Below are positions 33,044-52,691 of a DNA stretch of 64,000 nucleotides, one piece after another. The notes under the pieces are model-generated. The model saw only the letters and a program-made list of their open reading frames with translations. It had not been told where the DNA came from and did not search any database. The stretch is from NCBI GenBank assembly GCA_964350265.1, contig CAYGJZ010000001.1, positions 33,944 through 97,943 of the forward strand, given 5' to 3'. Position 1 is the first letter of the stretch, and the number at the start of each line of letters is the position of its first letter. Origin of the DNA: an uncultured Gammaproteobacteria bacterium (GTDB lineage: Bacteria > Pseudomonadota > Gammaproteobacteria > Arenicellales > CAJQKF01). The position numbers and the translations under genes were made by a program.

Positions 33044-33129
33044 GGCTATCGAATTGCCGTGAACTTAGCCACGGGCTATCGTCCGATAAGACAGATCACT
33101 TTGACAGTGTTCTTTCACTCTCTCTACTC
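33044..33129 (+). promoter_or_regulatory. Conserved MSA-island promoter/operator element, copy 1 (upstream of msmA)
   Basis: GGCTATCGAA-N20-GGCTATCGTCCGATAAGACAGATCACTTTGACA (-35-like 33101-33106), then N17, then CTACTC (33124-33129). Near-identical to copy 3. Confidence 0.65.
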
Positions 33130-33253
33130 TTGCCGGACGTAATACCCGCGGCCCGATTCCGGAAATTCCGGCGTTGCCGCCGTGAATCCAGGCGGGACAC
33201 CCAGCCGTCGAGCGACCAGCGGTCGCCGACCATCACAGCGAGGAGCCAATACC

Positions 33254-34540
33254 ATGCCAACCAGAAATGCAGAAACCTGGAAGCAGGCGCCGAAGGGCCT
33301 GCGTCAGGGCGAATGGATCGATTCGCGCATCTACTCCGACCGGGAGATCTTCGAAGAAGAGCTGAACAAGGTCTGGAAGAAGTGCTGGATCGCGGTCTGC
33401 CACGAATCCGAGCTGTCCGAGCCCTACGATTTCCGCACCATGACCATCGCTCGCGAGCCGATCATCGTGGTGCGTGGCCCGGACAACAAGATCCGCGCCT
33501 TCCTCAACGTCTGTCCGCACCGCGGCAACATGATCGAGATGCGTCCTTCCGGCAACTTCAAGGAAGGCACCCCGTCGGGCAACCCCAAGCACATGACCTG
33601 CATGTTCCACGCCTGGCAGTTCGACATGAAGGGCAACTGTTCCTACATCTCGCGCGAGAAGGAAGGTTACCAGGAGCGCCTGACCCGCAAGGACGTCGGC
33701 CTGCGCAAGCTGAAGAGCGAAGTGTACTTCGGCGGTTTCGTCTGGGTCTGCCTGGACGACGAGATGGACCAGACCGTGGCCGAGTGGGGCGGCGGTGCCT
33801 TCGATTGCCTGCAAAAGGCGGTGGACGAAGAGCCGTTGGAGGTCTTCCACTACCACAAGGCCATCATTCCGTGCAATTACAAGCTGTGGCATGACACCAA
33901 CTCGGAGTTCTACCACGACTACCTGCACTACCATAACCGCATCACCGGCTTCAACGACGAGTACTTCGCGCGCAAGAACTCCGCCTACGACAACGGTCAC
34001 GTGGTAGTCGGCTCGTTCAAGGTGCGCTACGACCAGTACGAGGGCTTCCATTCCCGTGCCGATGCCTCCTTCCCGCACATGGAGGAGAATGCCTGGTACA
34101 TGATCGACATGTTCCCGGGCATCAACTTCAACCTGCGCGGTTCGGCGCTGCGTTGCGACCTGATGACGCCGCTGTCGCCCAACGAGGTGATGATCGAGTT
34201 CCGCGGTCTCGGCCTGAAGAGCGACACCCCGGAGCTGCGCAAGGCACGCATCGAGCACCACAACTCGATCTGGGGTCCGTTCGGGCGCAACCTGCACGAG
34301 GACCTGATCGCGGTCAGCGGCCAGGGCGGCACCATGGCGGAGAACGCCGAGCCGCGCCGCATCCTGCACGGCCGCCACGAGAACCACACCATCCACGACG
34401 AAGTCGGCATGCGTCACTTCTACGACGTCTGGGGCCAGATGATGGATCGCCTGCCGAGCGACCCGACCCAGCCCTACGCGCCGCCCCCCGCGGACCTCGA
34501 GCTCGAGGAGCCTGCGAAACAGGCTGCCAGCGCAGGCTGA
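33254..34540 (+). CDS. msmA: Methanesulfonate monooxygenase hydroxylase large subunit (Rieske/mononuclear Fe)
   Basis: 428 aa from MPTRNAETWK (GAGGAG RBS). Rieske motif CPH-(26 residues)-CMFH, the unusual X26 spacing described for MsmA. Followed by beta subunit, Rieske ferredoxin and reductase genes. Confidence 0.85.
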   Translation: MPTRNAETWKQAPKGLRQGEWIDSRIYSDREIFEEELNKVWKKCWIAVCHESELSEPYDFRTMTIAREPIIVVRGPDNKIRAFLNVCPHRGNMIEMRPSGNFKEGTPSGNPKHMTCMFHAWQFDMKGNCSYISREKEGYQERLTRKDVGLRKLKSEVYFGGFVWVCLDDEMDQTVAEWGGGAFDCLQKAVDEEPLEVFHYHKAIIPCNYKLWHDTNSEFYHDYLHYHNRITGFNDEYFARKNSAYDNGHVVVGSFKVRYDQYEGFHSRADASFPHMEENAWYMIDMFPGINFNLRGSALRCDLMTPLSPNEVMIEFRGLGLKSDTPELRKARIEHHNSIWGPFGRNLHEDLIAVSGQGGTMAENAEPRRILHGRHENHTIHDEVGMRHFYDVWGQMMDRLPSDPTQPYAPPPADLELEEPAKQAASAG

Positions 34541-34620
34541 GTGGCCCTTCCCGGCGGCGACCCGAGCGGTCGCCGCCGACCGATGCTGTTGATCGAAAAC
34601 CTGTCGAGTTCAAGAACACC

Positions 34621-35121
34621 ATGAGTAACGAAAAACGCACGGCCGCCGTGGAGGCCGTCAAGGACACCATCTACCGCGCCTGCCTGCACCTGGACGACGA
34701 AAAGTGGAGCGACTGGCTGGACCAGTGTGACCAGGACTTCACCTATGCCATCTGCGCCTACAGCCCGGAAATCCGCACCGACATGACCTACCTGTCCGGC
34801 GACCGCGAGGAAATGGTGTCGTTGACGGAGATGCTGCCCAAGCACAACACCGACCAGTCGCCGCTGAGCCGTCATGCCACCGTCTACGCGGTGGACGTCA
34901 GCGAGGACGGCACCGAGGCCAGCGCGGTGACCACCGTGGCCATCTACCAGACCCGTCTGAACGGCAACAGCTCCCACGTCGATGCCGGTTCCACCCACCT
35001 GTTCGTCAGTGCCAAGTACTACGACAAGTTGCGACTGGTGGACGGCAAGGCCAAGTTCGTCGAGCGGGTGACGCGGCTGGACACCCGCCGCCTCGACCGC
35101 GGCTCGCACTGGCCCTTGTAA
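34621..35121 (+). CDS. msmB: Methanesulfonate monooxygenase hydroxylase small (beta) subunit
   Basis: 166 aa from MSNEKRTAAVEAV (frame of ORF 34153..35121). NTF2-like ring-hydroxylating oxygenase beta-subunit pattern. Position follows msmA. Confidence 0.8.
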   Translation: MSNEKRTAAVEAVKDTIYRACLHLDDEKWSDWLDQCDQDFTYAICAYSPEIRTDMTYLSGDREEMVSLTEMLPKHNTDQSPLSRHATVYAVDVSEDGTEASAVTTVAIYQTRLNGNSSHVDAGSTHLFVSAKYYDKLRLVDGKAKFVERVTRLDTRRLDRGSHWPL

Positions 35122-35235
35122 CGACGACGCGGGGCCAAGCGCCCCGCCACGCCGTCGGGCGTCCGAGGAGGAGGCGCGTACCGGCCAACCGGGTCGGTGG
35201 CGCGCAGGAAAAAACGATAAGCGAGCCTACCCTAC

Positions 35236-35595
35236 ATGAGCTGGAAAAACGTCTGTAGCCTGAACGACCTGGAATCCAACAGCCTGCGCGAATTTGATGT
35301 CGACGGCATCAGCATCGTGCTGGCGCGCGTGGACGACCAGGTCCGTGCCATTCCCCCCGCCTGCCCGCACATGGAGGAGCCGCTGGCGCGCTCCGGCCTG
35401 TGTTCCGGCGGCATGCTCACCTGCACCAAGCACCTGTGGCAGTGGGACATCCTCACGGGCGAGGAGCGCGGCGACGCCGAGAAGCCGCTGTTGATGTACG
35501 AGACCAAGGTCGAGGACGACAACGTGCTGGTCTTCGTCGACGGCGAACTCGAGTACGAGTACGACGACGAGGATGACGAGGACGACGATGACTAG
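35236..35595 (+). CDS. msmC: Rieske-type [2Fe-2S] ferredoxin component
   Basis: 119-aa ORF. CPH-X17-CTKH Rieske motif. Poly-acidic C-terminal tail EYEYDDEDDEDDDD. Confidence 0.85.
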   Translation: MSWKNVCSLNDLESNSLREFDVDGISIVLARVDDQVRAIPPACPHMEEPLARSGLCSGGMLTCTKHLWQWDILTGEERGDAEKPLLMYETKVEDDNVLVFVDGELEYEYDDEDDEDDDD

Positions 35596-35646
35596 CGTCC
35601 ATCCCGGCGTCGGCGTTGGCCGTTGCCCGCGCGGAAGCGTGCGCGG

Positions 35647-36699
35647 ATGAGGATCGACGTCAAGGCCAAGAACGGCGAGTTTCACTTCGACTGCGAAGAA
35701 GGCGAACAGGTTCTCTATGCCGGCCTGCGCCAGGGCATCGAGCTGCCCTACGAGTGCGCCACCGGCACCTGCGGCACCTGCAAGGCCCGCGTCGGCGAAG
35801 ACCAGGGCGAACCCATCGTCAACGGCTGGGAGGAAGCCCCCGGTCGCGCCTACCTGAAGCCGAAGCGCGGCGAGTTCCTGATGTGCCAGGCCTCGGCGCG
35901 TGGCAGCTGCCGCATCGTCGTGCCGAGCAAGCTCAACGGCGCCGACGACCATGGTCGGCCCGGCTACCGCAACGGCGTCATCGGCGACCTGCGCACGCTC
36001 AACCCGGACGTGGTCGACTTCCGCGTGCGGCTCGATGCGCCGATGAGTTTCCGCGCCGGCCAGTTCGCCTGCCTGGAAACCCCGGGAGTGGAAGGCTTCC
36101 GCGCCTACTCGATGGTCAACTACGACACCAACGAGACCGACGAGCTGCACTTCGTGGTCAAGCGCAAGCCCGACGGCGCCTTCTCCAAGGCCCTGTTCGA
36201 CGGTCGCATCGACGGCGCTGCCACCCGGGTCTTCGGGCCCCTTGGCAAGGCGGTGTTCGACCCGGCGGAGAACCGCAACGTGCTGTGCATGGCCGGTGGT
36301 TCGGGCATCGCGGGGATGATGTCCATCGCCCGCCACGTCGACCACATCGACTACTGTGCCGATCACCACATGCGCATGTTCTTCGGCGTGCGCAGCGAGC
36401 GCGACACCTTCTACCTCGACGAGCTGGCGGAACTCGCCGAACGGCACGTCGACCGCATGTCGGTGTGGATCGTGCTTTCCGAAGAGGATCCGGGCGAGGC
36501 GCTGCGCGCCGCCTACCCGTCGCTGGGCTTCGACACCGGCTTCGTCCACGAGGTCATGGGTCGACGCATGCAGGGCCTGTACCAGGACTCGGTGGCCTTC
36601 GTGGCCGGGCCGCCGCCGATGGTCGACGGCGTGCTGCGGCTGCTGATCATCGACGGCCGCCTGCCGGCCTCGGACATTCGCTATGACAAGTTCTCGTAA
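35647..36699 (+). CDS. msmD: Ferredoxin-NAD(P)H reductase component (plant-type 2Fe-2S + FNR-like)
   Basis: 350 aa from MRIDVKAKNG (ORF track offers TTG at 35623). CATGTCGTCKARV cluster motif, FAD/NAD domains RAYSMVN and MAGGSGIAGMMS. Confidence 0.85.
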   Translation: MRIDVKAKNGEFHFDCEEGEQVLYAGLRQGIELPYECATGTCGTCKARVGEDQGEPIVNGWEEAPGRAYLKPKRGEFLMCQASARGSCRIVVPSKLNGADDHGRPGYRNGVIGDLRTLNPDVVDFRVRLDAPMSFRAGQFACLETPGVEGFRAYSMVNYDTNETDELHFVVKRKPDGAFSKALFDGRIDGAATRVFGPLGKAVFDPAENRNVLCMAGGSGIAGMMSIARHVDHIDYCADHHMRMFFGVRSERDTFYLDELAELAERHVDRMSVWIVLSEEDPGEALRAAYPSLGFDTGFVHEVMGRRMQGLYQDSVAFVAGPPPMVDGVLRLLIIDGRLPASDIRYDKFS

Positions 36700-36801
36700 C
36701 GCGATGGCGGCGGCTTGCACAATGAAGCAGCCTGCCGGAACATCGAACCACAACCGACGACATGACACCGGCGCTCGCGCGAAGGTATTGGAGGAACGCC
36801 G

Positions 36802-37236
36802 ATGACGGAAACCCCGAACAAGCACGAAGTCCTGGTCGATGCCGAGCTCTTTGCCGGCGTCGACCCGGCCACCATCGACCGCATTGCCGAAGTCTCCGGG
36901 TTCCGGCGCTTCGAGGAAGGCGACGTCGTCTACCAGATGGGCGATGACGCCGACCACGCCTTCGTGCTGGTCCAGGGCCGCGTGCGCTTCAGTCTCGGCG
37001 TGGGCAACCGGCCGGGCAGCGGGCATTCCATCATCACCCGCAACATGACCTACGGCTGGGCTGCGCTGATCGACGAGCGGCCGCGACGCGTGGCTACCGC
37101 CTCGTGTCTCGAGCCGACCGTGCTGCTGGCCATCGACGGTCGCAAGCTGTTGACCATTCTCGAGGACGACACCGCCTCCGGCTTCCTGGTCATGCGGCGC
37201 ATCGCCTCGATGATTGCCAGGAACTTCCTGGAGTAG
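36802..37236 (+). CDS. Stand-alone cNMP-binding-like domain protein (degenerate phosphate-binding cassette)
   Basis: 144-aa ORF with GGAGG RBS. CAP/cNMP-fold pattern GDVVYQMGD..D..FVLVQGRV...YGWAALIDERPRRVATASCL. No HTH or other output domain. Confidence 0.75.
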   Translation: MTETPNKHEVLVDAELFAGVDPATIDRIAEVSGFRRFEEGDVVYQMGDDADHAFVLVQGRVRFSLGVGNRPGSGHSIITRNMTYGWAALIDERPRRVATASCLEPTVLLAIDGRKLLTILEDDTASGFLVMRRIASMIARNFLE

Positions 37237-37260
37237 TATTCACCCGCGCACCAGCGTCAT

Positions 37261-37291
37261 GCCGCGACCCCCGGGGTCGCGGCGCATTTTT
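37261..37291 (+). terminator. Rho-independent terminator after the msmABCD-cNMP unit
   Basis: GCCGCGACCC-CCG-GGGTCGCGGC, then GCA, then TTTTT. Confidence 0.7.
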
Positions 37292-37369
37292 CCCAGGGTC
37301 GCCGCGCGCGGCCCTTGTTGACCGTTCACGAACACCGTACAACGACACCACGCAGAGGAGCGAAACCAC

Positions 37370-39043
37370 ATGGCCAAGACCGATCTTGAGATTGCCCGCG
37401 AGGCGAAGATGCAGCCGATCAACGAGATCGCGTCGAAGATCGGCATTCCCGACGATGCGCTGGCGCCCTTCGGTCGTACCAAGGCCAAGGTGTCCTTCGA
37501 CTTCATCAACACGCTGAAGGACCGCAAGGACGGCAAGCTGATCCTGGTCACGGCGATGTCGCCGACCCCGGCCGGCGAAGGCAAGACCACCACCACGGTG
37601 GGACTCGGCGATGCCCTGAACCGCATCGGCAAGAAGACCATGATGTGCCTGCGCGAGCCGAGCCTCGGCCCGTGCTTCGGCATGAAGGGCGGCGCCGCCG
37701 GCGGCGGCTATGCCCAGGTAGTGCCGATGGAAGACATCAACCTGCACTTCACCGGCGACTTCCACGCCATCACCTCGGCCCACAACCTGCTGTCGGCGAT
37801 GATCGACAACCATGTCTACTGGGGCAACGAGCTCGGCTTCGACCTGCGTCGCATCTCCTGGCGCCGCGTGGTCGACATCAACGACCGCTCGCTGCGTTCC
37901 ATCGCCAGCGGCCTGGGCGGCGTCAGCAACGGCTTCGTGCGCGAGACCGGCTACGACATCACCGTCGCCTCGGAGATCATGGCCATCTTCTGCCTGGCGC
38001 GCGACCTGGATGATCTCAGCGAGCGGCTCGGCAACATCATCGTCGGCTACACCCGGGACCGCGAAGCCATCTATGCCCGCCAGGTGAAAGCCCCGGGCGC
38101 GATGACCGCGTTGCTGCGCGACGCGCTGTCGCCGAACCTGGTGCAGACGCTGGAGAACAACCCGGTGTTCATCCACGGCGGTCCCTTCGCCAACATCGCC
38201 CATGGCTGCAACTCGGTGATCGCCACCACCACCGCGCTCAAGCTGGCCGACTACGTGGTCACCGAGGCCGGCTTCGGCGCCGACCTCGGGGCCGAGAAGT
38301 TCTTCGACATCAAGTGCCGCAAGGCCGGCCTGAATCCCGCTGCCGCGGTCATCGTGGCCACCGTGCGTGCACTGAAGATGCACGGCGGCGTGGCCCGCGA
38401 TGCGCTGGGTGCCGAGGACATTCCGGCATTGAAGGCGGGACTGGCCAACCTTGGCCGTCACATCCGCAACGTCGGTCACTACGGCGTTCCGGTGGTGGTG
38501 GGCATCAACCGCTTCTCCGGCGATACCGACGGCGAGATCGAGGCGGTCAAGGCCTACTGCCGCGAGCTCGGCGTGGAAGCCATTTCCTGCACCCACTGGG
38601 GCGACGGTGGCGCCGGCGCCGAGGCACTGGCCGAGGCGGTGGCCAAGCTGGCCGACAGCGGCAGCGCGCAGTTCCGCACCCTGTACGACGACGACGTGCC
38701 GCTGTGGCAGAAGGCGAAGACCATCGCGCAGAAGATCTACGGCGCCGAGGACATCATCGCCGATGCCCGCGTGCGTGCGCAGTTCACCGCCTACGAGGAA
38801 GCCGGTTTCGGTTCGCTACCGATCTGCATGGCCAAGACGCAATACAGTTTCTCCACCGATCCGAAGCTGCTCGGCGCGCCGAGCGATCACGCGGTGGCCA
38901 TTCGCGAAGTGCGCCTGTCCGCCGGTGCCGGCTTCCTGGTGTGCATCTGCGGCGACATCATGACCATGCCTGGTTTGCCGCGAGTGCCCGCCGCAGACAA
39001 GATTTTCGTCGACGATAACGGCAATATCGAGGGATTGTTCTAG
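37370..39043 (+). CDS. fhs: Formate--tetrahydrofolate ligase
   Basis: 557-aa [19 protein letters not shown]-loop and full-length collinearity with the FTHFS family as recalled ([22 protein letters not shown]). Confidence 0.95.
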
Positions 39044-39103: not shown

Positions 39104-39175
39104 ACAAGTGATAGCCCGCCCCTATCGTTTCATTCGTTCAAATGACTTTACAAATCGAAGTCAGTCCGCTGAGAT
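39104..39175 (+). promoter_or_regulatory. Conserved MSA-island element, copy 4 (degenerate; far upstream of msmE)
   Basis: GATAGCCCGCCCCTATCGTTTCATTCGTTCAAATGACTTTACA (-35-like TTTACA 39147-39152), then N17, then TGAGAT. Shares the CTATCGT...A.AT.ACTTT.AC frame with copies 1-3, but weaker. Confidence 0.4.
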
Positions 39176-39679
39176 AGATGCAGGTCGGAGGCCGGTAACG
39201 ATGACGTTACCGGTTCGCCGAAACACCGTGAATCACGGTGTTTTCGCAGCGACAAGCAGAACCGGCCCTGGGGTGACACCCTGGCGAGAACAAGTCGCGA
39301 ACACCCTGGCCCGGTCCGCCGCGCCAGGCGGGGTTACGCGACCCGCCGCGACACCCGGCAGCATGTGCGACCCGGCTGCCAGTTGCCAACGGCAACTCGA
39401 CACGGCGCGAATGACAGGAGGAAACATGACGCGTAACCCCAGCTACGCGCAACGACGTGCGCAGCCGGCCACCCCGGCCCGAACAGGACAGAGCCATGCT
39501 CATGCCCTGTCTCGCGCCTGCGCCCTCTCGGTTTCCCGTTCGATTTACCAAGCTCATACTCCGGCCATGACAGCTCACCTGCCTTGCCCGGTGCCCTGAG
39601 TGAGGCCGCCCGGTGCCCATGCGGGCAACCGGTGATGCCTTAGCTACCCAAGAAGTTTGACCACGATAAGGAGGAAGCC

Positions 39680-40816
39680 ATGTTTCAACATCGAACGATT
39701 TCCCGGACCCTGAGCACCGCCGCTGCGGCGATGTTCGCGGTTGGTGTACCGGGAACCGCCCTCGCGGCGGACAAGGACTACGGCAATCCGGGGGAGCCGG
39801 TTGACCTGGTCATTGGTTACCAGCCGTACTACACCCAGTCCTGGTCCGGCGTGGTCATGCGCGGACAGGAACTGTGGAAGAAATACCTTCCGGAAGGTTC
39901 CAGCGTGGAATTCGCCATTGGCCTGCAAGGCGCCATCGTGGTGAACAACATGCTCGCCGGCAAGAACGACATCGGCTACATGGGCGACATGCCGGCCATC
40001 GTTGCCACCACCAAGGACGAGGTCGCCGACATTCGCATCGTCGCCACCCTCGGCACGGGCTGGGACATGTGCAACGTGTTCCTGGTGCGCAACGACGCAC
40101 CGGAATTCGCCGATGCACAGGAGGCCATGAAGTGGCTGGACGGCAAGATCGTCGCGGTGCCGCAGGGTAGCTGTACCGACCGCTTCGCCCGCGCCGTGTT
40201 CGAGAAGCTGTCCATCGAGCCGGAGGCCTACCTCAACCAGAACATCGAGGTCATCACCAGTGGCTTCCGCGTCGGCAAGCTGGACGCGGCGGTCATGTGG
40301 GAACCGACCACCTCGCGCCTGGTGGAAGAGGGCCTGGCCCGACGTGTTGCTTCCGGCGCCTCCGCCGATGAGAACGACGGTGGCTTCCTGGCCATGCGTG
40401 GCGACCTCATCAAGCAGCGCCCGGACGTGGTCAAGGGCTGGCTCGAGGCCGAGCTGGACGCGCAGCTTTTCCTCTCCGATCCGGCCAACTACATGGCGGT
40501 GGTGAAGATGGCGCAGGACCAGACCACCGGCTTCTCCGAGAAGATCCTGTGGAGCTCGCTGGCCGGTTCCTTCCCGGAATCCCAGGGTGGCGTGGAAGTG
40601 CGTGACTACAAGGAATACGCGATTACCCCGCGCGCCCAGGAGCTGCTGACCCGTGCGACCAAGTTCCTGCACTCGATCAAGAGCATCAAGTCGGACACCC
40701 TGCGTCCGGAAGCCGTGATGACCGAGTTCACCGAGGAGATCCTCAAGGAACGTGGCCTGACCGCGCCGATCGGCGAGATCAAGGCTCAGCCCGAGTCCGC
40801 CTACACCGGTAGCTGA
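39680..40816 (+). CDS. msmE: Sulfonate-type (NMT1/TauA-SsuA-like) ABC substrate-binding protein
   Basis: 378-aa ORF. AAGGAGG RBS, signal peptide ...GTALAA. First gene of a binding-permease-ATPase-permease set, the same order as msmEFGH. Confidence 0.75.
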   Translation: MFQHRTISRTLSTAAAAMFAVGVPGTALAADKDYGNPGEPVDLVIGYQPYYTQSWSGVVMRGQELWKKYLPEGSSVEFAIGLQGAIVVNNMLAGKNDIGYMGDMPAIVATTKDEVADIRIVATLGTGWDMCNVFLVRNDAPEFADAQEAMKWLDGKIVAVPQGSCTDRFARAVFEKLSIEPEAYLNQNIEVITSGFRVGKLDAAVMWEPTTSRLVEEGLARRVASGASADENDGGFLAMRGDLIKQRPDVVKGWLEAELDAQLFLSDPANYMAVVKMAQDQTTGFSEKILWSSLAGSFPESQGGVEVRDYKEYAITPRAQELLTRATKFLHSIKSIKSDTLRPEAVMTEFTEEILKERGLTAPIGEIKAQPESAYTGS

Positions 40817-45078: not shown

Positions 45079-45281
45079 TGCCCGACTGGCTGGTATCGCG
45101 CGCCACCGTCATCACCCTGGCGGTGATCGGCGGGGTGATCTCGCTGGTGGTGTCGCAGCTGCATGGTCGTGGCCGCATCGACGACGCCCAGGCGAAGAAG
45201 TTCAACCGCGTCGGCTACGGCTTCATGTGGGCCAGCATCGCGCTGTTCATCTACGCCGGCTTCCGCGCCGGCTACCAGTAG
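45078..45281 (+). CDS. Small two-TM membrane protein
   Basis: 67 aa, MPDWLVSRATVITLAVIGGVISLVV...FMWASIALFIYAGF. The ATG overlaps the ATPase stop (TGATG), implying translational coupling to the transporter operon. Confidence 0.55.
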   Translation: MPDWLVSRATVITLAVIGGVISLVVSQLHGRGRIDDAQAKKFNRVGYGFMWASIALFIYAGFRAGYQ

Positions 45282-45320: not shown

Positions 45321-45352
45321 AAAAAAACGGGCCCGGTTTGTAGCCGGGCCCG
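45321..45352 (-). terminator. Rho-independent terminator of the sulfite dehydrogenase operon
   Basis: CGGGCCCGG-N7-CCGGGCCCG. Read on the minus strand it is followed by TTTTTTT (the A run at 45321-45327 on the plus strand). Confidence 0.75.
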
Positions 45353-45418: not shown

Positions 45419-46042
45419 TCAGCCTGCGTGGTCGCCGTCGGCAACGGTGCCGATGGGCTTGCAGTCCGACATGCAGCGTTCTGCGCTGGCGTCCGGGCGG
45501 TCGTCGTTGATGAAGGCATCCTTGTTCGGCATCTCGATGGCCGGCATGGTCTCCGCGTTCATGGTGAAGTCCTCGGCCACCAACCCGTTCAGGTGGTAGA
45601 TGTAGGCGGACACCGCGTAGACCTCGTCGTTGGTCAGCGAGTATGGCCGGTCCATCGGCATGGCACGACGCACGTAGTCGAAGATGATCGGCGCATAGGG
45701 ATACATGCTGCCGGGCGTCAGCTTGCGCGGACGCTCGGTCATGCTGCCGATGCCACCGACCATGCTGCCGTACACAGGCCCGCCGCCGGCATCGGCGCCG
45801 TGGCAGGCCAGGCACTTGGCCTCGTACACCGCCTTGCCCTCGGCCACCGTGCCCTGTCCTTCGGGCAGGCCGACACCGGTGGGTGCCTGGATCTCGATGT
45901 CCCACAGGGCGAGGTCGCTCTCGGCGATGTCCGAGCCGAAGGCAGCGCCTTCCGGACGTTCACCGAAGTCGGCCTGTACCGCGCCGACGAGGGCGAAGGA
46001 CAGCGTTGCCGCGATGGCGGCATGCAGTTTACGCGATGGCAT
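45419..46042 (-). CDS. Monohaem cytochrome c subunit of sulfite dehydrogenase (SorB/SoxD-like)
   Basis: 207-aa ORF with signal peptide and a single CLACH haem motif. Start overlaps the molybdoprotein gene by 14 nt. Confidence 0.75.
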   Translation of the reverse strand: MPSRKLHAAIAATLSFALVGAVQADFGERPEGAAFGSDIAESDLALWDIEIQAPTGVGLPEGQGTVAEGKAVYEAKCLACHGADAGGGPVYGSMVGGIGSMTERPRKLTPGSMYPYAPIIFDYVRRAMPMDRPYSLTNDEVYAVSAYIYHLNGLVAEDFTMNAETMPAIEMPNKDAFINDDRPDASAERCMSDCKPIGTVADGDHAG

Positions 46043-47387
46043 TTTTCACCTCCCCACTTTCGGAAACGGACCAGGGGAAGACACCGTTGTGGTGCTGCAC
46101 GAAGCCGACGATCTCGCGCTTGCGCGCCAGGTCTTCCACCGTGGGCTGCACGTAGCCGGTGTCGTCCATGGCGCGGCTGGCGATCTTCGCCGGGCTGCCG
46201 TCCCACTGCCAGTTGTAGCGGAAGCGGGTCAGGCACTTGTCCATCACCGGTCCTTCCACCGTGGCCTCGCGCCAGGTCTTGCCGCCGTCGAAGGTCACGT
46301 CCACCGCCTTGATCTTGCCAAGCCCCGACCAGGCAAAGCCCTGCACCTCGTAGAGGCCGGGGCCGGCCATGTTCATGCCGCCGGAGGGGTTGGTGATCAC
46401 CGACTTGCATTCCATCTCCATGCTGAACTGGCGCCACTTGCCGTCCGGCATCGGGTCGGTGTAGCGGGCGGTCTCGCCGCGCACGTGGGCCGGCTGGTCC
46501 ACCACCTTGATGCGGCGCAGCCACTTCACGTTGGTGTTGCCTTCCCAGCCGGGGATGATGGCGCGCAGCGGGTAGCCCTGCTCGGCACGCAGCATCTCGC
46601 CGTTCTGGCCATAGGCCAGCAGCACGTCGTCCATGATCTTCTCGATGGGAATCGAGCGCAGGTGGCCGGAGCCGTCACCGCCCTCGAGCATCACCCACTT
46701 GCCTTCCGCCTTCACACCGGCCTCGTCCAGCAGCCAGGCCAGCGGAATGCCGGTCCACTGTCCGCAGGACAACAGGCCGTGGCTCTGCTGCACGGTGGTC
46801 GCCTTCGGCTCGCGCCAGTCGGTGAGCGTGTTGCCCGAGCACTCCAGGAAGTGGAAGCGTGATACCGACGGGTAGCGCATCAGGTCGTTCATGGTGAACA
46901 CCAGCGGCCGCTCCACCAGTCCGTGGATGACCAGCCTGTGCTGCTCCGGGTCGATCTGTGCAACGCCGTTGTGGTGACGTTCGAAGAACAGCCCGTTCGG
47001 CGTCACGATGCCGATCTGGTGCTGCAGCGGCGTCATGCTCCAGTCGGAGAAGTTCTGCTTGTTGACGAAGACATCCGTACGGCGCCGCTTGACGTGATCC
47101 TCGTACTGGATCGGCATGCCGTAATCCGTTTCGGGAATCGGCCGTCCCATGGTCTTGTTGCTCTCCGGCACCGCCAGTGGCTCGGCGCGCGCGGCGGATA
47201 TGCCCGCGCCTGAGGCCATGGCAACACCTGCCATGGAAAGACCGGATTGCAGGAACCGGCGACGTTCGCCGGCGGAAGGTGCCCTGGAGGGCTGCGTGCT
47301 CAGCGTTCGGTCGTTCGGCGCATCGGCCGAACCCGAACCGCCCGCCTCCCCGCTGCTGCGGGTACGGACTTTCTTGGTAGTCATCAA
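46029..47387 (-). CDS. SoxC/SorA-family molybdopterin sulfite dehydrogenase
   Basis: 452-aa ORF. Tat signal ERRRFLQSG. Sulfite-oxidase-fold motifs HFLECSGN, GWEGNTNVKWL and a C-terminal dimerisation domain. Confidence 0.85.
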   Translation of the reverse strand: MMTTKKVRTRSSGEAGGSGSADAPNDRTLSTQPSRAPSAGERRRFLQSGLSMAGVAMASGAGISAARAEPLAVPESNKTMGRPIPETDYGMPIQYEDHVKRRRTDVFVNKQNFSDWSMTPLQHQIGIVTPNGLFFERHHNGVAQIDPEQHRLVIHGLVERPLVFTMNDLMRYPSVSRFHFLECSGNTLTDWREPKATTVQQSHGLLSCGQWTGIPLAWLLDEAGVKAEGKWVMLEGGDGSGHLRSIPIEKIMDDVLLAYGQNGEMLRAEQGYPLRAIIPGWEGNTNVKWLRRIKVVDQPAHVRGETARYTDPMPDGKWRQFSMEMECKSVITNPSGGMNMAGPGLYEVQGFAWSGLGKIKAVDVTFDGGKTWREATVEGPVMDKCLTRFRYNWQWDGSPAKIASRAMDDTGYVQPTVEDLARKREIVGFVQHHNGVFPWSVSESGEVKNAIA

Positions 47388-47655: not shown

Positions 47656-48618
47656 ATGCCCCATCGGCCACGTGGTGGCCGTGATGGTCGACGGTTGAGC
47701 GCGCCCGTATCGCCGCGGCGACGGCTGGCCGCGGCCAGCGCGGTGGTGCTCGGCGCGGTGGCCACCGCCGCCAACCCGGTGTTCGTGCGGATCAGTGACG
47801 TCGGCCTGGTGGCCTCGGCCTTTCACCGCATGTTCTGGGCCATCCCGGTGCTGGCGCTGTGGGCCTGGCTGGCGCGGCGCCGGGAATCCGCGCCACGCGG
47901 TCTCGGCACACGCGACGCGGTGCTGCTGCTGGCCTGCGGTGCCTTCTTCGCCGGCGACCTGGTGGCGCTGCATACCTCCATCTCGCTGACCTATGCCGCC
48001 AATGCCATCCTGTTCCTCAATGCCCAGCCCATCTACGTGGTGCTGGCCGGCTGGCTGCTGTTCGGCATCGTGGTCACCCGGCGCTTCGTGCTGGCGGCGG
48101 CGGTGGCCATGGCCGGGGCGGTATTGCTGGTGGGGCAGGGCGCACGGTTCGGTGGCGAACACCTGCTCGGCGACGGCCTCGGCGTGGTCGCCGGGCTGTG
48201 CTATGCCGGCTACATCCTCGCCGCCGCCTACCTGCGCAACGGTCGTGGCAGTGCGGTGATCAACCTGTGGACCTGCGTGGTCGGCGCGCCCATCCTGCTG
48301 GTGGCGGCGCTGGTTGCCGGCCAGGACATCCTGCCGCCCAGCGGGCGCGACCTGGCATTGATGATTGCGCTCGGCGTGGTCTCGCAGGCACTCGGCCAGG
48401 GCTTGATCGTGTGGGGCCTGGCCTACCTGCCGTCGAGTTTCTCCTCGGTGGCGTTGATGGTCGCCCCGGTGGCCGCCGCCGGTTTTGCCTGGCTGCTGCT
48501 GGACGAGGCCATGAGCGCACTGCAACTGCTGGCCATGGGCATCGTCCTGGCCGGTGTCTACGGTGCCTGGCGGGCCAGCTTCGCGGTCAAGCGCAGGCTC
48601 GAGGCGGCGGCGACGTGA
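47656..48618 (+). CDS. DMT-superfamily (EamA-like) transporter
   Basis: About 320 aa from MPHRPRGG within ORF 47542..48618 (start uncertain). Ten predicted TM segments and two EamA repeats. Confidence 0.7.
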   Translation: MPHRPRGGRDGRRLSAPVSPRRRLAAASAVVLGAVATAANPVFVRISDVGLVASAFHRMFWAIPVLALWAWLARRRESAPRGLGTRDAVLLLACGAFFAGDLVALHTSISLTYAANAILFLNAQPIYVVLAGWLLFGIVVTRRFVLAAAVAMAGAVLLVGQGARFGGEHLLGDGLGVVAGLCYAGYILAAAYLRNGRGSAVINLWTCVVGAPILLVAALVAGQDILPPSGRDLALMIALGVVSQALGQGLIVWGLAYLPSSFSSVALMVAPVAAAGFAWLLLDEAMSALQLLAMGIVLAGVYGAWRASFAVKRRLEAAAT

Positions 48619-48626
48619 ATGCCTTC

Positions 48627-49619
48627 CTAGCCGCGCGACTTGCTCGTCGCACGCTTGCGCCGCGCCACCTTCGAGGTCATCGGCGGCACCGCGTTGTGCA
48701 TGCGGTTCTCGCTGAACCAGCGCTCGATGCCGCCGTTGTCGATGGCCTCGCCGAGCACGTCGATGACCGCCTTGGCCATCGGCATCATCGGGTCGCCCTC
48801 CACCCACACCAGGCCGACGGTCTCCTTCACCACCGGGTCTTCCAGCGCCACCCGGCGGGTGCCCGGGCAGTTGCTCAACATTTCCATGAAGTGACTGGGT
48901 ATGATGGTGGCCAGCTTGGCGGCGGCCACGTGGAAGGCGAGCTGGAAGATGGAGTTGGATTCCATCTTCGGCTGCGGCACGAAGCCGGAGCCGGCGAAGG
49001 CGCGGTCGAGGATCTGCCGCTCCGGGGTGCTCGGCGAGAGCAGGCACAACGGCAGTTGCGCCGCCTCTTCCCAGGTGGCGGACTCGCGGCCTTCCAGCCA
49101 GTCGTTTTCCGGCAGCAGCAGGATCAGCCGCTCGTCGTACAGGGGCAGGCTCTGCAGCCGGTCCATGGGCTGGCTGGAGAGGTAGGTGATGCCGACGTCG
49201 AACTCGAAGTTGGTCAGGCCGACGTTGAGCCGGTTCTGGCCGATGAACTGGATGTCCACCTGCACCCCGGGATGACGCTCGACGAACAGCTGGTTGACCA
49301 CCGGCAGCACCGGCGAGGTCATCGGCATGGCGCCGACCCGCAGCAGGCCCTGCAGGTTGCCGTGCATGATGGCCAGCTCCTCGAGCATGGCATTCTTGTC
49401 GGCGAGGATGCGCTTGGCCCAGGTGACCACCCGCATGCCTTCCTCGGTGAAGCCCTGGAAGCGGTGTGCCCGCAGTATGATGGGCACGTCGAGCTCGATC
49501 TCCAGTTGCTTGATGGCGCTGGAAAGACTCGGCTGGGAGACGTGGCAGTGTTCGGCGGCGCGGCCGAAGTGGCCGTGCTCCTCGAGGGAAACTAGGTACT
49601 CGAACTGTCGTAGAAACAT
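48627..49619 (-). CDS. LysR-family transcriptional regulator
   Basis: 330 aa from MFLRQFEYLVSLEEHGHFGRAAEHCHVSQPSLSSAIKQLE (ATG 49619; the ORF track TTG at 49634 is less likely). Divergent from the tauE-like gene. Confidence 0.9.
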   Translation of the reverse strand: MFLRQFEYLVSLEEHGHFGRAAEHCHVSQPSLSSAIKQLEIELDVPIILRAHRFQGFTEEGMRVVTWAKRILADKNAMLEELAIMHGNLQGLLRVGAMPMTSPVLPVVNQLFVERHPGVQVDIQFIGQNRLNVGLTNFEFDVGITYLSSQPMDRLQSLPLYDERLILLLPENDWLEGRESATWEEAAQLPLCLLSPSTPERQILDRAFAGSGFVPQPKMESNSIFQLAFHVAAAKLATIIPSHFMEMLSNCPGTRRVALEDPVVKETVGLVWVEGDPMMPMAKAVIDVLGEAIDNGGIERWFSENRMHNAVPPMTSKVARRKRATSKSRG

Positions 49620-49707
49620 GCTCGTTGCCTGCAAAAATCAACCATACATCGCCGAGCCCACGTCGTTCGTCGGCCGGCACAACGAGACGAGAGCCGGCTC
49701 GAAGTTT

Positions 49708-49735
49708 GAACGCTAAGACGTTGATCATAGCGTTC
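49708..49735. promoter_or_regulatory. Palindromic LysR-type operator in the lysR / tauE divergent region
   Basis: GAACGCTA-N12-TAGCGTTC (8-bp perfect arms), 33 nt upstream of the tauE-like ATG. Confidence 0.55.
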
Positions 49736-49767
49736 CCACGCCGGGTGGTCGAGGGAGGAGGGCGACC

Positions 49768-50529
49768 ATGACGATGATGACGATCCTGCCACTGGCCGTG
49801 GTGGTCCTGGTTTCCGGCGCATTGATCGGCTGTGTCGGCATCGGCGGCGTGCTGCTGGTGCCGGCGCTGGCCTACATCGGCGGCATCGACGTGCACCTGG
49901 CCATTGCCAGCGTGATGCTCAGCTATTTCTTCACCGGCGTGCTCGGCACCTGGCTGTATGCGCGCAAGGGATCCATCACCTGGGCGATGGCCGGCACCCT
50001 GTGCGCCGGCGCCATGCCCGGTGCCTTCCTCGGCGCCGCCGCGGTGCACGCGGTGCCGGGGCCGACGGTGGAACTGATCATCGGCCTTTTGGTGATCTTC
50101 TCCGGCCTGCATGCCCTGTACAGCGGCGAACGCAGTGCCAGCCGGGAGAGCCTGTCGGCGGCGGCACTGTTCGCGGTGGGCTTGTTCACCGGCTTCGGTT
50201 CGTCCCTCACCGGCTCTGGCGGGCCGTTGCTGCTGGTGCCGCTGCTGGTGTGGATGGGGCTGCCGGTGCTGGTCTCCATCGGTCTCAGCCAGGTCATCCA
50301 GGTGCCCATCGCGGTGCTGGCCACCGCGGGCAACATCGCCTACGGCGAGATCGACCTGGTGCTGGCACTGGTGGTGGCGGCGATGCTGATGCTCGGCGTG
50401 GTGGCCGGTGCGCGGCTGGCCCACCGGGTGTCGGCACGGACCCTGAAGCAGGTGGTGGCCTGGGTGATGGTGGCGGTGGGCGTCATCATCGTGGTGCGGA
50501 TCGGCTGGACCATGCTCGGCGGCGGTTGA
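49768..50529 (+). CDS. TauE/SafE-family sulfite (anion) exporter
   Basis: 253-aa ORF with about 8 TM segments. TauE/SafE-type glycine-rich repeats (GIGGVLLVPAL, GSGGPLLLVPLL). Confidence 0.8.
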   Translation: MTMMTILPLAVVVLVSGALIGCVGIGGVLLVPALAYIGGIDVHLAIASVMLSYFFTGVLGTWLYARKGSITWAMAGTLCAGAMPGAFLGAAAVHAVPGPTVELIIGLLVIFSGLHALYSGERSASRESLSAAALFAVGLFTGFGSSLTGSGGPLLLVPLLVWMGLPVLVSIGLSQVIQVPIAVLATAGNIAYGEIDLVLALVVAAMLMLGVVAGARLAHRVSARTLKQVVAWVMVAVGVIIVVRIGWTMLGGG

Positions 50530-50537
50530 GGCGAACC

Positions 50538-51536
50538 GTGGATCTCTCCGGCCTGGTGCGCGACTACGGCGACGTCGACGCCGAGTGGCGCGCCGCGCGC
50601 GAGGATGCCGCGCTGTTCGACTTCTCCTTCATGTCGCGGGCGCGGCTGGCCGGCGCCGGTGCCGCCGCCGCGCTCAACGCCTTCCAGCCCCGGCCGGTGG
50701 AGCGGCTGGCGGTGGGCCGCATCGCCTATGCCCTGCGTCTCGCCGCCGACGGCTTCGTACGCACCGATCTCACCGTGTGGCGGCTGGCCGAGGATGTCTT
50801 CGAGCTGTACAGCGGCGACCACCGGGACATCGACGACCTGCTCGCCATGGCGGGTGACGACGTCGCCGTGACCGACCTGTCCGAACATGCCGTCTTCGCC
50901 GTGCAGGGGCCGTCGACCCCGGCGCGGATGCACGCCCTGTGCGGCGACGCCCTGGACGGGCTCGACTACTTCGGCTTTCGCGCCATCGAGGTCCATGGCC
51001 TGCCGGTGCTCGCCGGGCGGCTGGGCTATACCGGCGAGAAGGGCGTCGAGCTGATCGTCGATGCCGACCATGCCGCGGTCCTGTGGCAACACCTCGCCGA
51101 CCGCTTGCCGCCGGCCGGCTTCGCCGCCATCGACCGGCTGCGCATCGAGGCCGGCTTCGTGCTGTTCGCCAACGAGTGCCGGCTGCCGGTGCGGCCGGCG
51201 GACCTGGGTCTTGGCGGGTTCGCCGCCGACCCGGCGCCGCCGCGCTGGCGGCTGACCGGCTTCCGCGCCGCCCAGGCCCTGCCCACCGAGCCCTGGCGTC
51301 CGCCCGGGCCGCCGCGGCCACCACGGGCGGGGGAGATCGCGGTGACCTCCGCCTGCCGCCACGGCGACGGCGTCATCGGCCTCGGCTTCGTCGACGCCGG
51401 GTCGGCCGCCGCGCGGCTGCACGACCCGGTCACCTTCGGCGAGGTGGTGGCCGCCTCCATCCCCTTTCTCGACCCCGAAAAACGCCGTCCCCGCGGGCCC
51501 TGGCGGGCCGAACCCGGCCCCGGTTCCGCCGGCTGA
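50538..51536 (+). CDS. GcvT-family (aminomethyltransferase-like) folate-binding protein
   Basis: 332 aa from a GTG (VDLSGLVRDYG) in the frame of ORF 50001..51536. GcvT landmarks AALFDFSFM, FAVQGP, GYTGEKGVEL, RLRIEAGF. Starts 8 nt after the tauE stop. Confidence 0.75.
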   Translation: MDLSGLVRDYGDVDAEWRAAREDAALFDFSFMSRARLAGAGAAAALNAFQPRPVERLAVGRIAYALRLAADGFVRTDLTVWRLAEDVFELYSGDHRDIDDLLAMAGDDVAVTDLSEHAVFAVQGPSTPARMHALCGDALDGLDYFGFRAIEVHGLPVLAGRLGYTGEKGVELIVDADHAAVLWQHLADRLPPAGFAAIDRLRIEAGFVLFANECRLPVRPADLGLGGFAADPAPPRWRLTGFRAAQALPTEPWRPPGPPRPPRAGEIAVTSACRHGDGVIGLGFVDAGSAAARLHDPVTFGEVVAASIPFLDPEKRRPRGPWRAEPGPGSAG

Positions 51537-51548
51537 ACCATCAAACGG

Positions 51549-51634
51549 GGCTATCGAACCGCGCTCTTTTAAGTTCCCGGCTATCGTCTGATAAGCGAGA
51601 TCACTTTGACGCGCTTTCCCGCCGCTCACTATTC
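51549..51634 (+). promoter_or_regulatory. Conserved MSA-island promoter/operator element, copy 3 (upstream of the panB-like gene)
   Basis: GGCTATCGAA-N20-GGCTATCGTCTGATAAGCGAGATCACTTTGACG (51606-51611), then N17, then CTATTC (51629-51634). Same 30-nt spacing of the two GGCTATCG boxes as copy 1. Confidence 0.65.
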
Positions 51635-51794
51635 TGTGTCCCGAACAACGAGTTGCCGCGACGTGTCCCGATCCCTCGCCCGCAACCGCGCCCGCTGGGC
51701 GGTGGCGCGCGGGTGGCATTGCGCGTTGCCATTGGCAGGAAAGCCACGCCGCGACCACGCCAATCACCATGTACTACATGCAACAGGAGGACCG

Positions 51795-52691
51795 ATGAGT
51801 CAATCATCCGAGACGGCCGCACCGGCCAAGCGCAAGAAAGTCACCATCCCCATGCTCATGGACAAGATGAAGCGGGGCGAGGCGATCACGCAGATGGCCG
51901 TGTACGAGTACCGTCACGCCGTGGTCTGCGACCGGCTCGGCATGGACATCCTGTGCGTGTCCGATTCCGGCGGCATGATCCTGTTCGGCCACGAGAGCAC
52001 CACCTCCGTCACCTTCGAAGAGGTGATGATGATGTCCAAGGCCGTGCAGCGCGGTTCCAAGTACGGCCTGCGCATGGTCGACATGCCCTACTGGAGCTTC
52101 CACGTTTCCCCCGAGCAGGCGGTGGAGAATGCCGGCCGCTTCGTCCACGAGGCTGGCGCCGAGGTGATGAAGTGTGAAGGCAACCAGCACCATGCCAAGG
52201 CCATCGAGGCCATCATCAAGGCCGGCATCCCGGTGCAGGGCCACATCGGCATCACCCCCATGCGCATGCCCCAGCTCGGCGGCTTCCGCGCCCAGGGCAA
52301 GACCGCCGAAGACGCCAAGCGCCTGATCGACGACGCCTGGGCCTTCGTCGACGCCGGCTGCTTCTCCATCATGTGCGAAGTGGTCTCCAACGAGGTCAAC
52401 CAGTACCTCGCCGAGACCCTGCCGGTGCCGGTGATCTCGCTGGGCTCGGGCAACCGCGGCCACGGCGTGCACATCATCGCCAGCGACCTGTTCCACCTCT
52501 ACGAGGAACACGTGCCGCGGCACTCGAAGATCTACACCGATCTCATCCCGATCCTCGAGGACGTGTACACCCGCTACATGGACGACGTGCGCAACCGTGT
52601 CTACCCGGGCAAGGAGCACACCGTGTTCATGAAGGACGAGGAGCTCGCCGTGCTGAAGAAGGAGCTCAACTGGGAGCCGAAGACGGCCTGA
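51795..52691 (+). CDS. PanB-family (3-methyl-2-oxobutanoate hydroxymethyltransferase-like) protein
   Basis: 298 aa from MSQSSETAAP (AGGAGG RBS). Collinear with E. coli PanB as recalled: VSDSGGM/VGDSLGM, GHIGITP/GHLGLTP, GGFRAQGK/GGYKVQGR, PVISLGSG/PVIGIGAG, VYPGKEHT/VYPGEEHS. Confidence 0.8.
   Translation: MSQSSETAAPAKRKKVTIPMLMDKMKRGEAITQMAVYEYRHAVVCDRLGMDILCVSDSGGMILFGHESTTSVTFEEVMMMSKAVQRGSKYGLRMVDMPYWSFHVSPEQAVENAGRFVHEAGAEVMKCEGNQHHAKAIEAIIKAGIPVQGHIGITPMRMPQLGGFRAQGKTAEDAKRLIDDAWAFVDAGCFSIMCEVVSNEVNQYLAETLPVPVISLGSGNRGHGVHIIASDLFHLYEEHVPRHSKIYTDLIPILEDVYTRYMDDVRNRVYPGKEHTVFMKDEELAVLKKELNWEPKTA

Follow-up and report, generated by a model that had tools for sequence, protein, structure and literature searches.

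A putative methanesulfonate catabolic regulon of the msm type in an uncultured high-GC gammaproteobacterium

Gene content of the msm block

The 64-kb window analysed here (the whole stretch of 64,000 nucleotides taken from contig CAYGJZ010000001.1 of an uncultured gammaproteobacterium) contains a block of ~19.6 kb (genes at 33254-52691; unless a locus is named, coordinates are window positions) with genes of the msm type, named after methanesulfonate monooxygenase (MSAMO, EC 1.14.13.111). Because the window DNA is 65-72% G+C, reading frames were chosen by third-position GC content, and their products were then scanned with Pfam and NCBIfam models. An earlier note, made from the letters alone, had described a complete island for methanesulfonate (MSA) catabolism between two sets of core genes; the domain scans and motif counts recovered every gene it named at the expected position, along with both flanks, namely a yejA-like periplasmic binding protein gene on the left (30880..33039, minus strand, Pfam SBP_bac_5), which is the last gene of a yejABEF-type operon (27084-33039), and mutY (52830-53894) and yggX (53899-54168), both on the plus strand, on the right. 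That inventory was correct as far as it went, but it had overlooked a LysR-family regulator, an EamA-family transporter and two domains with the cyclic nucleoside monophosphate (cNMP)-binding fold. The grouping of these genes is not due to chance, since the same order and flanks occur in the independent assemblies L067, L069, L073 and L074.

At the left end of the block, four oxygenase components lie in msmABCD order on the plus strand (33254-36699), as judged by Pfam domains: the alpha subunit MsmA (33254..34540, 428 aa, Rieske and Ring_hydroxyl_A), the beta subunit MsmB (34621..35121, 166 aa, Ring_hydroxyl_B/SnoaL_4), whose start agrees with a 166-aa gene call in L067, the Rieske ferredoxin MsmC (35236..35595), which has an acidic C-terminal tail, and the reductase MsmD (35623..36699, Fer2, FAD_binding_6 and NAD_binding_1), for which the nearest NCBIfam models are MmoC/BenC-type reductases, with scores under their cut-offs. 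Counted by residue, the Rieske motif of MsmA, CPHRGNMIEMRPSGNFKEGTPSGNPKHMTCMFH, is CPH-X26-CMFH and that of MsmC is CPH-X17-CTKH, exactly the spacings reported beforehand.

An X26 spacer is regarded as a signature of MSAMO (PMC4433239), whereas other Rieske oxygenases have 16-18 residues at this place. Among the best 120 MsmA homologues listed from a collection of 5.8 billion proteins, which are 69-88% identical to the window protein, 119 have the X26 spacer, and JGI lists several members of the closest cluster, whose representative is 88% identical, under the name methanesulfonate monooxygenase large subunit. We also fetched 63 loci encoding MsmA relatives from species-representative genomes and located accessory genes in them by tblastn with the window proteins; the alphaproteobacterial homologues in this set (Hyphomicrobiales, Rhodospirillales) are 67-74% identical to MsmA. 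By comparison, the GbcA, carnitine and aromatic dioxygenase models of NCBIfam match only the Rieske half of MsmA, at 78-97 bits against cut-offs of 600-830 (for GbcA, 78 against 670). There is no MsmA model in NCBIfam and no MSAMO structure in the PDB, where the best matches are generic Rieske oxygenases (86 bits), relative to which an alignment gap makes the MsmA spacer 8 residues longer.

Reference points for spacer length were taken from an unbiased tblastn search of MsmA against plasmids. A Methylobacterium nodulans homologue (70% identical) and a Burkholderia homologue (49% identical) both have X26, while a Hydrogenophaga homologue (37% identical), found in an unrelated pathway context, has X17. 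From these points, the X26 spacer marks a clade that extends down to ~49% identity and is absent from more distant Rieske oxygenases. The possibility raised in advance that MsmA might better fit another kind of Rieske oxygenase sharing the X26 spacing is thus disfavoured by the low GbcA score and the X17 spacer of the 37% homologue, and the comparison favours MSA. The 49% homologue, L079, is annotated as an MSA monooxygenase (Burkholderia sp. RPE67 plasmid p3, AP014581.1 176328-179438).

Several related loci contain additional oxygenase genes. L035 has a second msmAB pair beside msmABCD and L055 has two msmABCD sets, duplications that recall the msmABC/msmABD duplication reportedly published for Marinosulfonomonas. 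In L039 (13594-14310) and L042 (13614-14330), both Thiodiazotropha, and in L048 (13731-14438; Arenicellales), genes for two further proteins follow msmD: another Rieske ferredoxin (39-41% identity with MsmC) and a free-standing cNMP-like protein. The permease fusion described below occurs in L039 and L042 as well.

The importer genes (39680-44107, plus strand) have the domain order NMT1_2, BPD_transp_1, ABC_tran, BPD_transp_1 of the NitT/TauT (sulfonate/nitrate/taurine) type and encode the sulfonate-type periplasmic binding protein MsmE (39680..40816, with a signal peptide), the permease MsmF (41046..42398, 450 aa), the ABC ATPase MsmG (42416..43270) and the second permease MsmH (43274..44107); their nearest NCBIfam models are SsuA, TauC, NtrB and SaoP, all under cut-off. 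The binding protein-permease-ATPase-permease order given by the earlier note stands, but it had missed that a second ABC ATPase (44152..45078, plus strand, Pfam ABC_tran) and a 67-aa two-helix membrane ORF (45078..45281, plus strand) then follow. The second ATPase is found directly 3' of msmH in 31 of the 63 related loci. The small ORF is called as a gene in L069 (3284-3487) and L073 (3070-3279) and has a match in L080 (5502-5681), with identities of 69-70% in L073 and L074 and 44% in L080, and it may be a sixth component of the transporter. In msm transporters of the cNMP-fusion type, a two-helix ORF of 67-69 aa always lies 3' of the second ATPase.

MsmF combines an N-terminal cNMP_binding domain with BPD_transp_1. 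This fusion is real: both domains lie within one window ORF that is open from 41022, independent gene calls in L067, L069 and L073 give proteins of 450-468 aa with both domains, and the two domain matches share a reading frame in L014, L039 and L042. It is also rare, in that an exhaustive HMMER search of 1.84 billion representatives yielded fragments and one full-length relative, which is 63% identical and sits in a binding protein-fusion-ATPase-permease-ATPase-small ORF operon. P0471 (438 aa), a candidate from the representative search, was rejected as a further fusion, as it has neither a cNMP fusion nor an msm context.

The second cNMP-like domain is a free-standing protein of 144 aa encoded after msmD (36802..37236, plus strand, Pfam cNMP_binding), a position at which 12 of the 63 loci have a homologue. 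It has no DNA-binding domain, and its phosphate-binding cassette reads YGWAAL...RRVATA. While both window copies fit the Pfam PF00027 fold, all 22 msm-linked sequences that were aligned have the cassette G-W-A-A-L...R-x-A-T/K in place of the canonical G-E...R-[ST]-A, with Trp at the position of the ribose-contacting Glu and the anion-binding Arg kept in 22/22. Despite the matching fold, these domains therefore lack the cassette that characterizes cyclic nucleotide binding; instead, the Trp-variant fold may bind a small anion (MSA, sulfite) via the cassette Arg. The role that we prefer for them is that of putative cytoplasmic sensors gating uptake or oxidation, which may throttle either step so that formaldehyde and sulfite stay low. 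Sensor domains are built into other ABC importers, such as the C2 domain of MetNI, ModBC, the C-terminal domain of NrtC and the CBS domains of OpuA, where they allow feedback (trans-) inhibition of uptake. Like these, the window importer has a soluble domain of ligand-binding type on a transporter subunit; unlike them, the domain has a cNMP-binding fold with Trp for Glu and is located at the permease N-terminus rather than on the ATPase.

Candidate genes for handling both products of MSA oxidation lie in the same block. On the minus strand, soxC (46029..47384) encodes a molybdopterin sulfite dehydrogenase that passes the TIGR04555 equivalog model (625 bits, cut-off 420) and has the twin-arginine (Tat) motif ERRRFLQ, and soxD (45419..46042), the reading frame of which overlaps that of soxC, encodes a monohaem c-type cytochrome with a signal peptide and the motif CLACH. 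With an equivalog match, a Tat signal and a partner cytochrome, the pair is of the periplasmic SoxCD type. An EamA/DMT-family transporter follows on the plus strand (47743..48618, Pfam EamA, start taken from the L069 gene call), and then the LysR-family regulator (48627..49619, minus strand, Pfam HTH_1 and LysR_substrate), which is divergent from a TauE/SafE-family exporter gene (49768..50529, plus strand; Pfam TauE, 136.7 bits, cut-off 32.6) with sulfite as its putative substrate. In the left half of the block, fhs (37370..39043, plus strand) encodes a canonical formate-tetrahydrofolate ligase (Pfam FTHFS, 885 bits; NCBIfam NF010030, 915 bits against 652), for which an exact-sequence look-up gave no match. 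At the right end, a GcvT-like protein of 332 aa (50538..51536, plus strand), which has the folate-binding GCV_T domain only, is followed by a PanB-like paralogue of ketopantoate hydroxymethyltransferase (51795..52691, plus strand, 298 aa, Pfam Pantoate_transf).

The catalytic residues D45/S46, D84, K112/E114, H136 and E181 of Escherichia coli PanB align to identical residues in the PanB-like protein, which has HGV in place of a DGQ motif and looks like a diverged paralogue of PanB. It is 100% identical to P0179, identities range from 76 to 82% among the relatives listed outside its own lineage, and across alpha- and gammaproteobacterial loci it is as conserved as MsmA (66-80%). In 22 of 46 loci, its gene lies immediately upstream of msmA, a linkage that fits a C1 product. 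The enzyme may be the actual formaldehyde-handling step, either by forming methylene-tetrahydrofolate (methylene-THF) or by adding formaldehyde to a 2-oxoacid. Just past the panB stop codon is a perfect 13-bp inverted repeat without a T run, GTCCGCGACCACG-CCC-CGTGGTCGCGGAC (52701-52729), which could mark where a transcript ends or serve as a stabilising hairpin at this edge of the block.

The msm box and the transcription units

Alignment of the intergenic regions with those of a sister lineage exposed conserved blocks that contain a recurrent element, termed here the msm box. Its core, T-ATCGTCCGATA-A, is a LysR-type T-N11-A dyad; a -35-like TTGACA follows after 10 nt, and TAnnnT hexamers lie 17-18 nt past the -35-like hexamer. 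Upstream of msmA (PmsmA), a CTATCG half-site (33046-33051) precedes the element TATCGTCCGATAAG-N10-TTGACA, which reads GGCTATCGTCCGATAAGACAGATCACTTTGACAG at 33077-33106 on the plus strand and is conserved in L067 and L001. The PpanB region (51551..51612, plus strand) similarly has a CTATCG half-site followed by TATCGTCTGATAAG-N10-TTGACG, with TATTCT 18 nt on; its box is GGCTATCGTCTGATAAGCGAGATCACTTTGACGC at 51582-51611. PsoxC, on the minus strand at 47518-47547 and thus 134-163 nt upstream of soxC, reads GCCTATCATCCGATAAGCGAGATCACTTTGCAG and has the form TATCATCCGATAAG-N10-TTGCAG, and its counterpart in L073 is conserved with an intact TTGACA.

A looser variant marks a putative PmsmE. Within the 636-bp fhs-msmE spacer, a block of ~80 nt (39107..39185, plus strand) is near-identical to L067, compared with about 50% identity in the remainder of the spacer, and contains the palindrome ATAGCCCGCCCCTAT (39111-39125) and CTATCG-N19-TTTACA (39122-39152). 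This short stretch has no Rfam match; over the msm block as a whole, Rfam gave nothing at the gathering threshold and, at E<=1, a single chance-level sRNA match (21 bits against 37).

We then scanned all 1.19 Mb of fetched loci with the pattern TATC[GA]-N2-[CT]GATA-N9-13-TT[GT]NC, which gave 30 matches compared with 0.2 in shuffled sequence. Where the neighbouring genes of a locus were mapped, every match is in sense orientation to panB or msmA and 100-390 nt upstream; matches in loci of the window's own species and of its sister lineage recover the msmA, panB and soxC sites seen in the window. Taxa with the operator range from low-GC Thioglobus and Arenicellales through to the high-GC lineage of the window. 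It is the longer element with its fixed -35 spacing that is significant; the bare ATAG-N7-CTAT motif is not enriched across the window (4 found, 2.5 expected).

The operator shared by msmA, soxC and panB gives direct evidence, at the level of sequence, for one regulon of the genes encoding the oxygenase, the sulfite dehydrogenase and the PanB-like protein. With a T-N11-A box near the -35 position at three promoters, a variant at a fourth and a LysR gene in the locus, the arrangement is that of LysR-type regulated promoters, and the LysR protein (48627-49619) is a candidate for binding the msm boxes. Two terminator-like hairpins fit the proposed transcription units: one with an 11-bp stem and a T run (37260..37284, plus strand), after the free-standing cNMP gene and thus placed to end an msmABCD-cNMP transcript, and one 3' of soxD (45328..45352, minus strand). 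Across Gammaproteobacteria more broadly, the msm box may join msmABCD and the PanB-like gene with the importer and soxCD in a single regulon. No description of it was found in the searchable literature.

Related loci and the reading of the pathway

About half of the 63 loci come from gammaproteobacterial metagenome-assembled genomes (MAGs), including Arenicellales, Granulosicoccaceae, Thioglobus, Thiodiazotropha, Acidiferrobacteraceae and Cocleimonas, and most of the others are alphaproteobacterial. The PanB-like gene is present at 35 loci, the second ATPase at 31, LysR at 27, TauE at 24, the GcvT-like gene at 17 and the free cNMP protein at 12, while SoxCD and fhs, counted within 10 kb, are present at five and four, respectively, and at none together. 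L048 (Arenicellales) and L051 (Hyphomicrobiales) have essentially the full accessory set, including SoxCD. The typical layout in marine Gammaproteobacteria is LysR (minus strand), TauE, in some cases GcvT, PanB and msmABCD, with msmEFGH and the second ATPase nearby; these loci resemble the window in MsmA (67-80% identical, X26) and in having the same msm box upstream of panB. The metagenome contig P0106 likewise shows LysR-TauE-PanB-msmABCD-msmEFGH, as in related loci. The window differs in that 17 kb separate panB from msmA, which stand at either end of the block and each keep an msm box, and in having both SoxCD and fhs, which most related loci lack within 10 kb. Its combination of SoxCD, fhs, GcvT-like, PanB-like and both cNMP-like domains is uncommon. 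In L003, L004, L006, L064-L066 and others, an ABC-2 exporter pair (a ~240-aa ATPase and a ~860-aa ABC2_membrane/ABC_transp_aux protein) follows the second ATPase, the place that soxDC takes in the window.

The closest published counterpart is a 20.3-kb segment from the marine alphaproteobacterium Filomicrobium (KM879220), for which Table 1 of Henriques & De Marco 2015 reports LysR, TauE/SafE, GcvT, 3-methyl-2-oxobutanoate hydroxymethyltransferase, SoxC and SoxD, along with an extra sulfonate-type ABC ATPase, msmHGFE and msmABCD (PMC4433239). The same paper discusses sulfite export, sulfite oxidation and C1 transfer, and Filomicrobium strain Y grows on MSA (PMC4433239). Going by this published gene table, the LysR(-)/TauE-GcvT-PanB(+) sub-order of Filomicrobium sp. 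Y/W is identical in the window, although the window host is a gammaproteobacterium. The Filomicrobium msmEFGH genes are divergent from msmABCD, whereas those of the window are co-directional; the Filomicrobium segment also encodes a pair of ABC-2 type exporter proteins that the window lacks; and its table lists no fhs, EamA or cNMP-domain genes, although the segment ends 244 bp past msmD, so that a cNMP gene could follow.

Other relatives share parts of the set. Methylosulfonomonas methylovora M2, with a biochemically characterised MSAMO encoded by msmABCD and msmEFGH operons (PMC4433239), agrees with the window by description in its four components, the X26 spacer and the binding protein-permease-ATPase-permease order; it differs in that the two operons alone were described, with no product-handling genes. 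Plasmid pMNOD01 of M. nodulans ORS 2060 (NC_011892.1), the source of the 70% identical X26 homologue, has the layout msmABCD-TauE-molybdopterin oxidoreductase-cytochrome c with formate dehydrogenase nearby; it differs from the window in being plasmid-borne with IS630 and IS66 flanks, in having an MFS transporter instead of an ABC importer, and in lacking PanB-like, GcvT-like and fhs genes in the stretch shown. Among further Gammaproteobacteria, Nitrincolaceae have msm genes as well as proteins in a metaproteome (PMC8371827), and an MSA monooxygenase is listed for E01-9C-26 single-cell genomes (PMC6003095).

We read the block as a self-contained, chromosomal MSA catabolic regulon of the msm type in an uncultured high-GC gammaproteobacterium and put the probability of this at roughly 80%. 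The reading is well supported by the sequence, specifically by the X26 spacer, the JGI-named close homologues, the low GbcA, carnitine and aromatic dioxygenase scores and a gene set like that of Filomicrobium; the proposal of uptake, oxidation and product handling at one locus is supported by the msmABCD order, the X26 spacer, the importer, SoxCD, TauE and the C1 genes. The analysis shows the gene content, motifs, signal sequences, shared operator, conservation and the empty site of a relative; we infer the substrate, the directions of flux, what the GcvT-like, PanB-like, EamA and cNMP-like proteins do and which protein binds the operator. MSA would be bound by periplasmic MsmE and imported via MsmF and MsmH, powered by MsmG and the second ATPase, and MsmABCD would convert MSA, NADH and O2 to formaldehyde and sulfite. 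Sulfite would leave via TauE; in the periplasm, Tat-exported SoxC would convert it to sulfate, and electrons would pass through SoxD to respiration. Formaldehyde would enter the tetrahydrofolate pool, with the GcvT-like and PanB-like proteins as candidate handlers, and the folate-bound C1 unit would be oxidised on towards formate, with Fhs acting in the ATP-yielding direction. The four units (msmABCD-cNMP, msmE to the second ATPase, soxCD and panB) would share the LysR-type operator next to the -35 position and would probably be controlled together by the LysR protein of the block.

Several results count against this interpretation. Variovorax sp. WS11, which has an X26 msmABCD set and a sulfite exporter, does not grow on MSA or ethanesulfonate (PMC7143210), and the genes clustered with the 49% identical X26 homologue (lactaldehyde dehydrogenase, PrpE and an MFS transporter) hint that the substrate may differ within the wider clade. 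MsmE is under all NCBIfam cut-offs (SsuA_fam, 91.6 bits against 163.5), as is the GcvT-like protein for every NCBIfam GcvT model (131 against 300, 110 against 459 and 104 against 236 bits), and the PanB-like protein narrowly passes one model of two (TIGR00222, 211.6 against 207.55; NF001452, 245.7 against 272). Past methylene-THF, the C1 route is incomplete in the window, since folD, purU and formate dehydrogenase were not found in its 64 kb. The connection of the LysR protein to the operator is one that we infer.

These points bear on two other readings of the function. The X26 clade may take in enzymes for other sulfonates, and the oxygenase and importer might act mainly on another small sulfonate (ethane- or propanesulfonate, isethionate or sulfoacetate), sulfite being handled in the same way and the C1 genes being incidental. 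The gene neighbours of the 49% homologue, the Variovorax precedent and the weak SsuA-family match of MsmE favour this substrate, and TauE-family proteins serve other sulfonate pathways too. However, the block contains three folate/C1 genes (fhs, GcvT-like and PanB-like), of which the PanB-like gene is under the same operator as msmA and in nearly half of the 46 loci directly precedes it; at 67-74%, MsmA is much closer to its alphaproteobacterial homologues than to the 49-52% group; and genes that would process a C2/C3 product, whether for an aldehyde dehydrogenase or for acetyl-CoA formation, are missing from the block. We therefore consider another principal substrate improbable. Less probable still is a cluster that scavenges sulfur from MSA only, or that is insufficient for growth, with no carbon or energy pathway. 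Variovorax again provides a precedent for such genes without growth, and serine-cycle, RuMP, folD and formate dehydrogenase genes are missing from the window, but with 64 kb of the genome in view, absent downstream genes weigh little. Sulfur scavenging is normally carried out by FMNH2-dependent SsuD/MsuD rather than by a four-component NADH oxygenase. Moreover, the sulfite here would be exported and oxidised by a respiratory SoxCD instead of being reduced for assimilation, and Fhs would supply an ATP-yielding step of C1 oxidation. MSA catabolism remains our preferred reading, in which the GcvT-like, PanB-like and Fhs proteins would channel formaldehyde through the folate pool to formate.

Site of the block, its host and wider meaning

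The closest genome, that of L001, is a gammaproteobacterial MAG with ~80% nucleotide identity and synteny that spans the yej operon and msmABCD, in agreement with the host class proposed in the earlier note. The window's own species was found in Logan assemblies, and L069 is 99-100% identical to the window in all covered proteins except the GcvT-like one (95%). In the sister lineage (L067, L073 and L074), gene order is the same across the entire block, as are the flanks; identities to L067 and L073 are 59-93% for island proteins and 60-91% for flank proteins. YejA of the window is 79-81% identical to YejA of L001, L067 and L075. In L075, 246 bp separate yejA from mutY-yggX, the orientation is divergent as in the window and no msm genes intervene (MutY 56%, YejA 79-80% and YggX 75% identical to the window), and synteny resumes further right with HAD-AstE-Pyr_redox. 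The comparison of yejA-mutY junctions thus yielded one empty site against filled sites in L067, L069, L073 and L074, and on the strength of the empty site the block is accessory, as had been proposed. L075 is the sole comparator of this kind, and MutY relatives drop from about 70% to 56% identity; L076 was rejected, its left side not being syntenic. Between yggX and HAD, L075 has four extra genes (3231-7784: one unknown, Aminotran_4, Sulfotransfer_5 and PEPCK), so that the right flank of the junction is variable as well.

Apart from this empty site, the block has no mark of a mobile genomic island. No integrase, transposase or tRNA target was found in it or at its ends, no direct or inverted repeat of at least 9 nt is common to both junctions, and GC3 is 0.896 in the block and 0.920 in the flanks. 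It is neither a recent nor a recognisably mobile island, and given the shared order and flanks in the sister lineage, the near-native codon composition and the lack of mobility genes, insertion between yejA and mutY would be old, predating the split of the known sister lineages. The GC3 values, the lack of an integrase, transposase or junction repeat, an island divergence matching that of the flanks and the single empty-site comparator would also suit an ancestral block that the L075 lineage deleted, as opposed to one that the window's lineage acquired. We regard this origin as rather unlikely, since msm clusters have a scattered distribution among Gamma-, Alpha- and Betaproteobacteria, the PanB-like and MsmA proteins of different classes are 67-80% identical, one msm copy is plasmid-borne and IS-flanked, and gene order around the conserved core varies by lineage, a pattern that fits horizontal spread. 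The question concerns origin only and leaves the MSA reading as it is.

Elsewhere in the window, a phosphonate-type ABC transporter, an Fe-alcohol dehydrogenase, a divergent LysR gene and a cupin lie at 2032-7293, where a perfect ATAG-N7-CTAT box (5899-5913) accompanies the divergent LysR, and a sulfatase lies in 17519-19048; the host seems rich in genes for organosulfur and organophosphorus scavenging. A RES-domain protein (630-1196) probably acts as the toxin in a toxin-antitoxin pair of the RES-Xre type. Just to the left of the yej operon, an HNH endonuclease, a MerB-like alkylmercury lyase and a glyoxalase-family gene coincide with a G+C dip to 0.645 (24648-26311). After a tRNA-Phe (58366-58441), G+C falls from ~0.70 to 0.57 up to the window end (64000) with few convincing ORFs, of which two were tested and had no Pfam match; this region resembles a distinct element that has integrated at the tRNA.

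The earlier view that so compact a product-handling arrangement was undescribed does not hold, as the Filomicrobium segment of 2015 (PMC4433239) and dozens of database loci already show such sets; the arrangement is common in uncultured marine Gammaproteobacteria, and known biochemistry is unchanged by the locus. What appear to be undescribed are the msm operator-promoter, the Trp-for-Glu cNMP-like domains and the tightness of the PanB-msmA linkage, and the cNMP-permease fusion is a further modest detail. That anion-binding cNMP-like domains, an msm-box regulon and a PanB-like formaldehyde step jointly constitute an undescribed regulatory layer is a tentative idea that we think rather unlikely to hold as a whole. 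The shared operator is direct sequence evidence for co-regulation of product-handling genes with the oxygenase. In addition, the PanB-like gene, the second ATPase and the conserved operator are better context markers of true msm loci than the annotation of msmA alone, which databases usually label 'aromatic ring-hydroxylating dioxygenase'.

MSA is a major atmospheric oxidation product of dimethylsulfide, and by consuming it bacteria complete a large branch of the sulfur cycle. The block described here is among the most complete single-locus versions, bringing together putative functions for the uptake and oxidation of MSA, for the export and oxidation of sulfite and for a folate-linked C1 step, and it adds an uncultured high-GC gammaproteobacterial lineage to the likely consumers of MSA.

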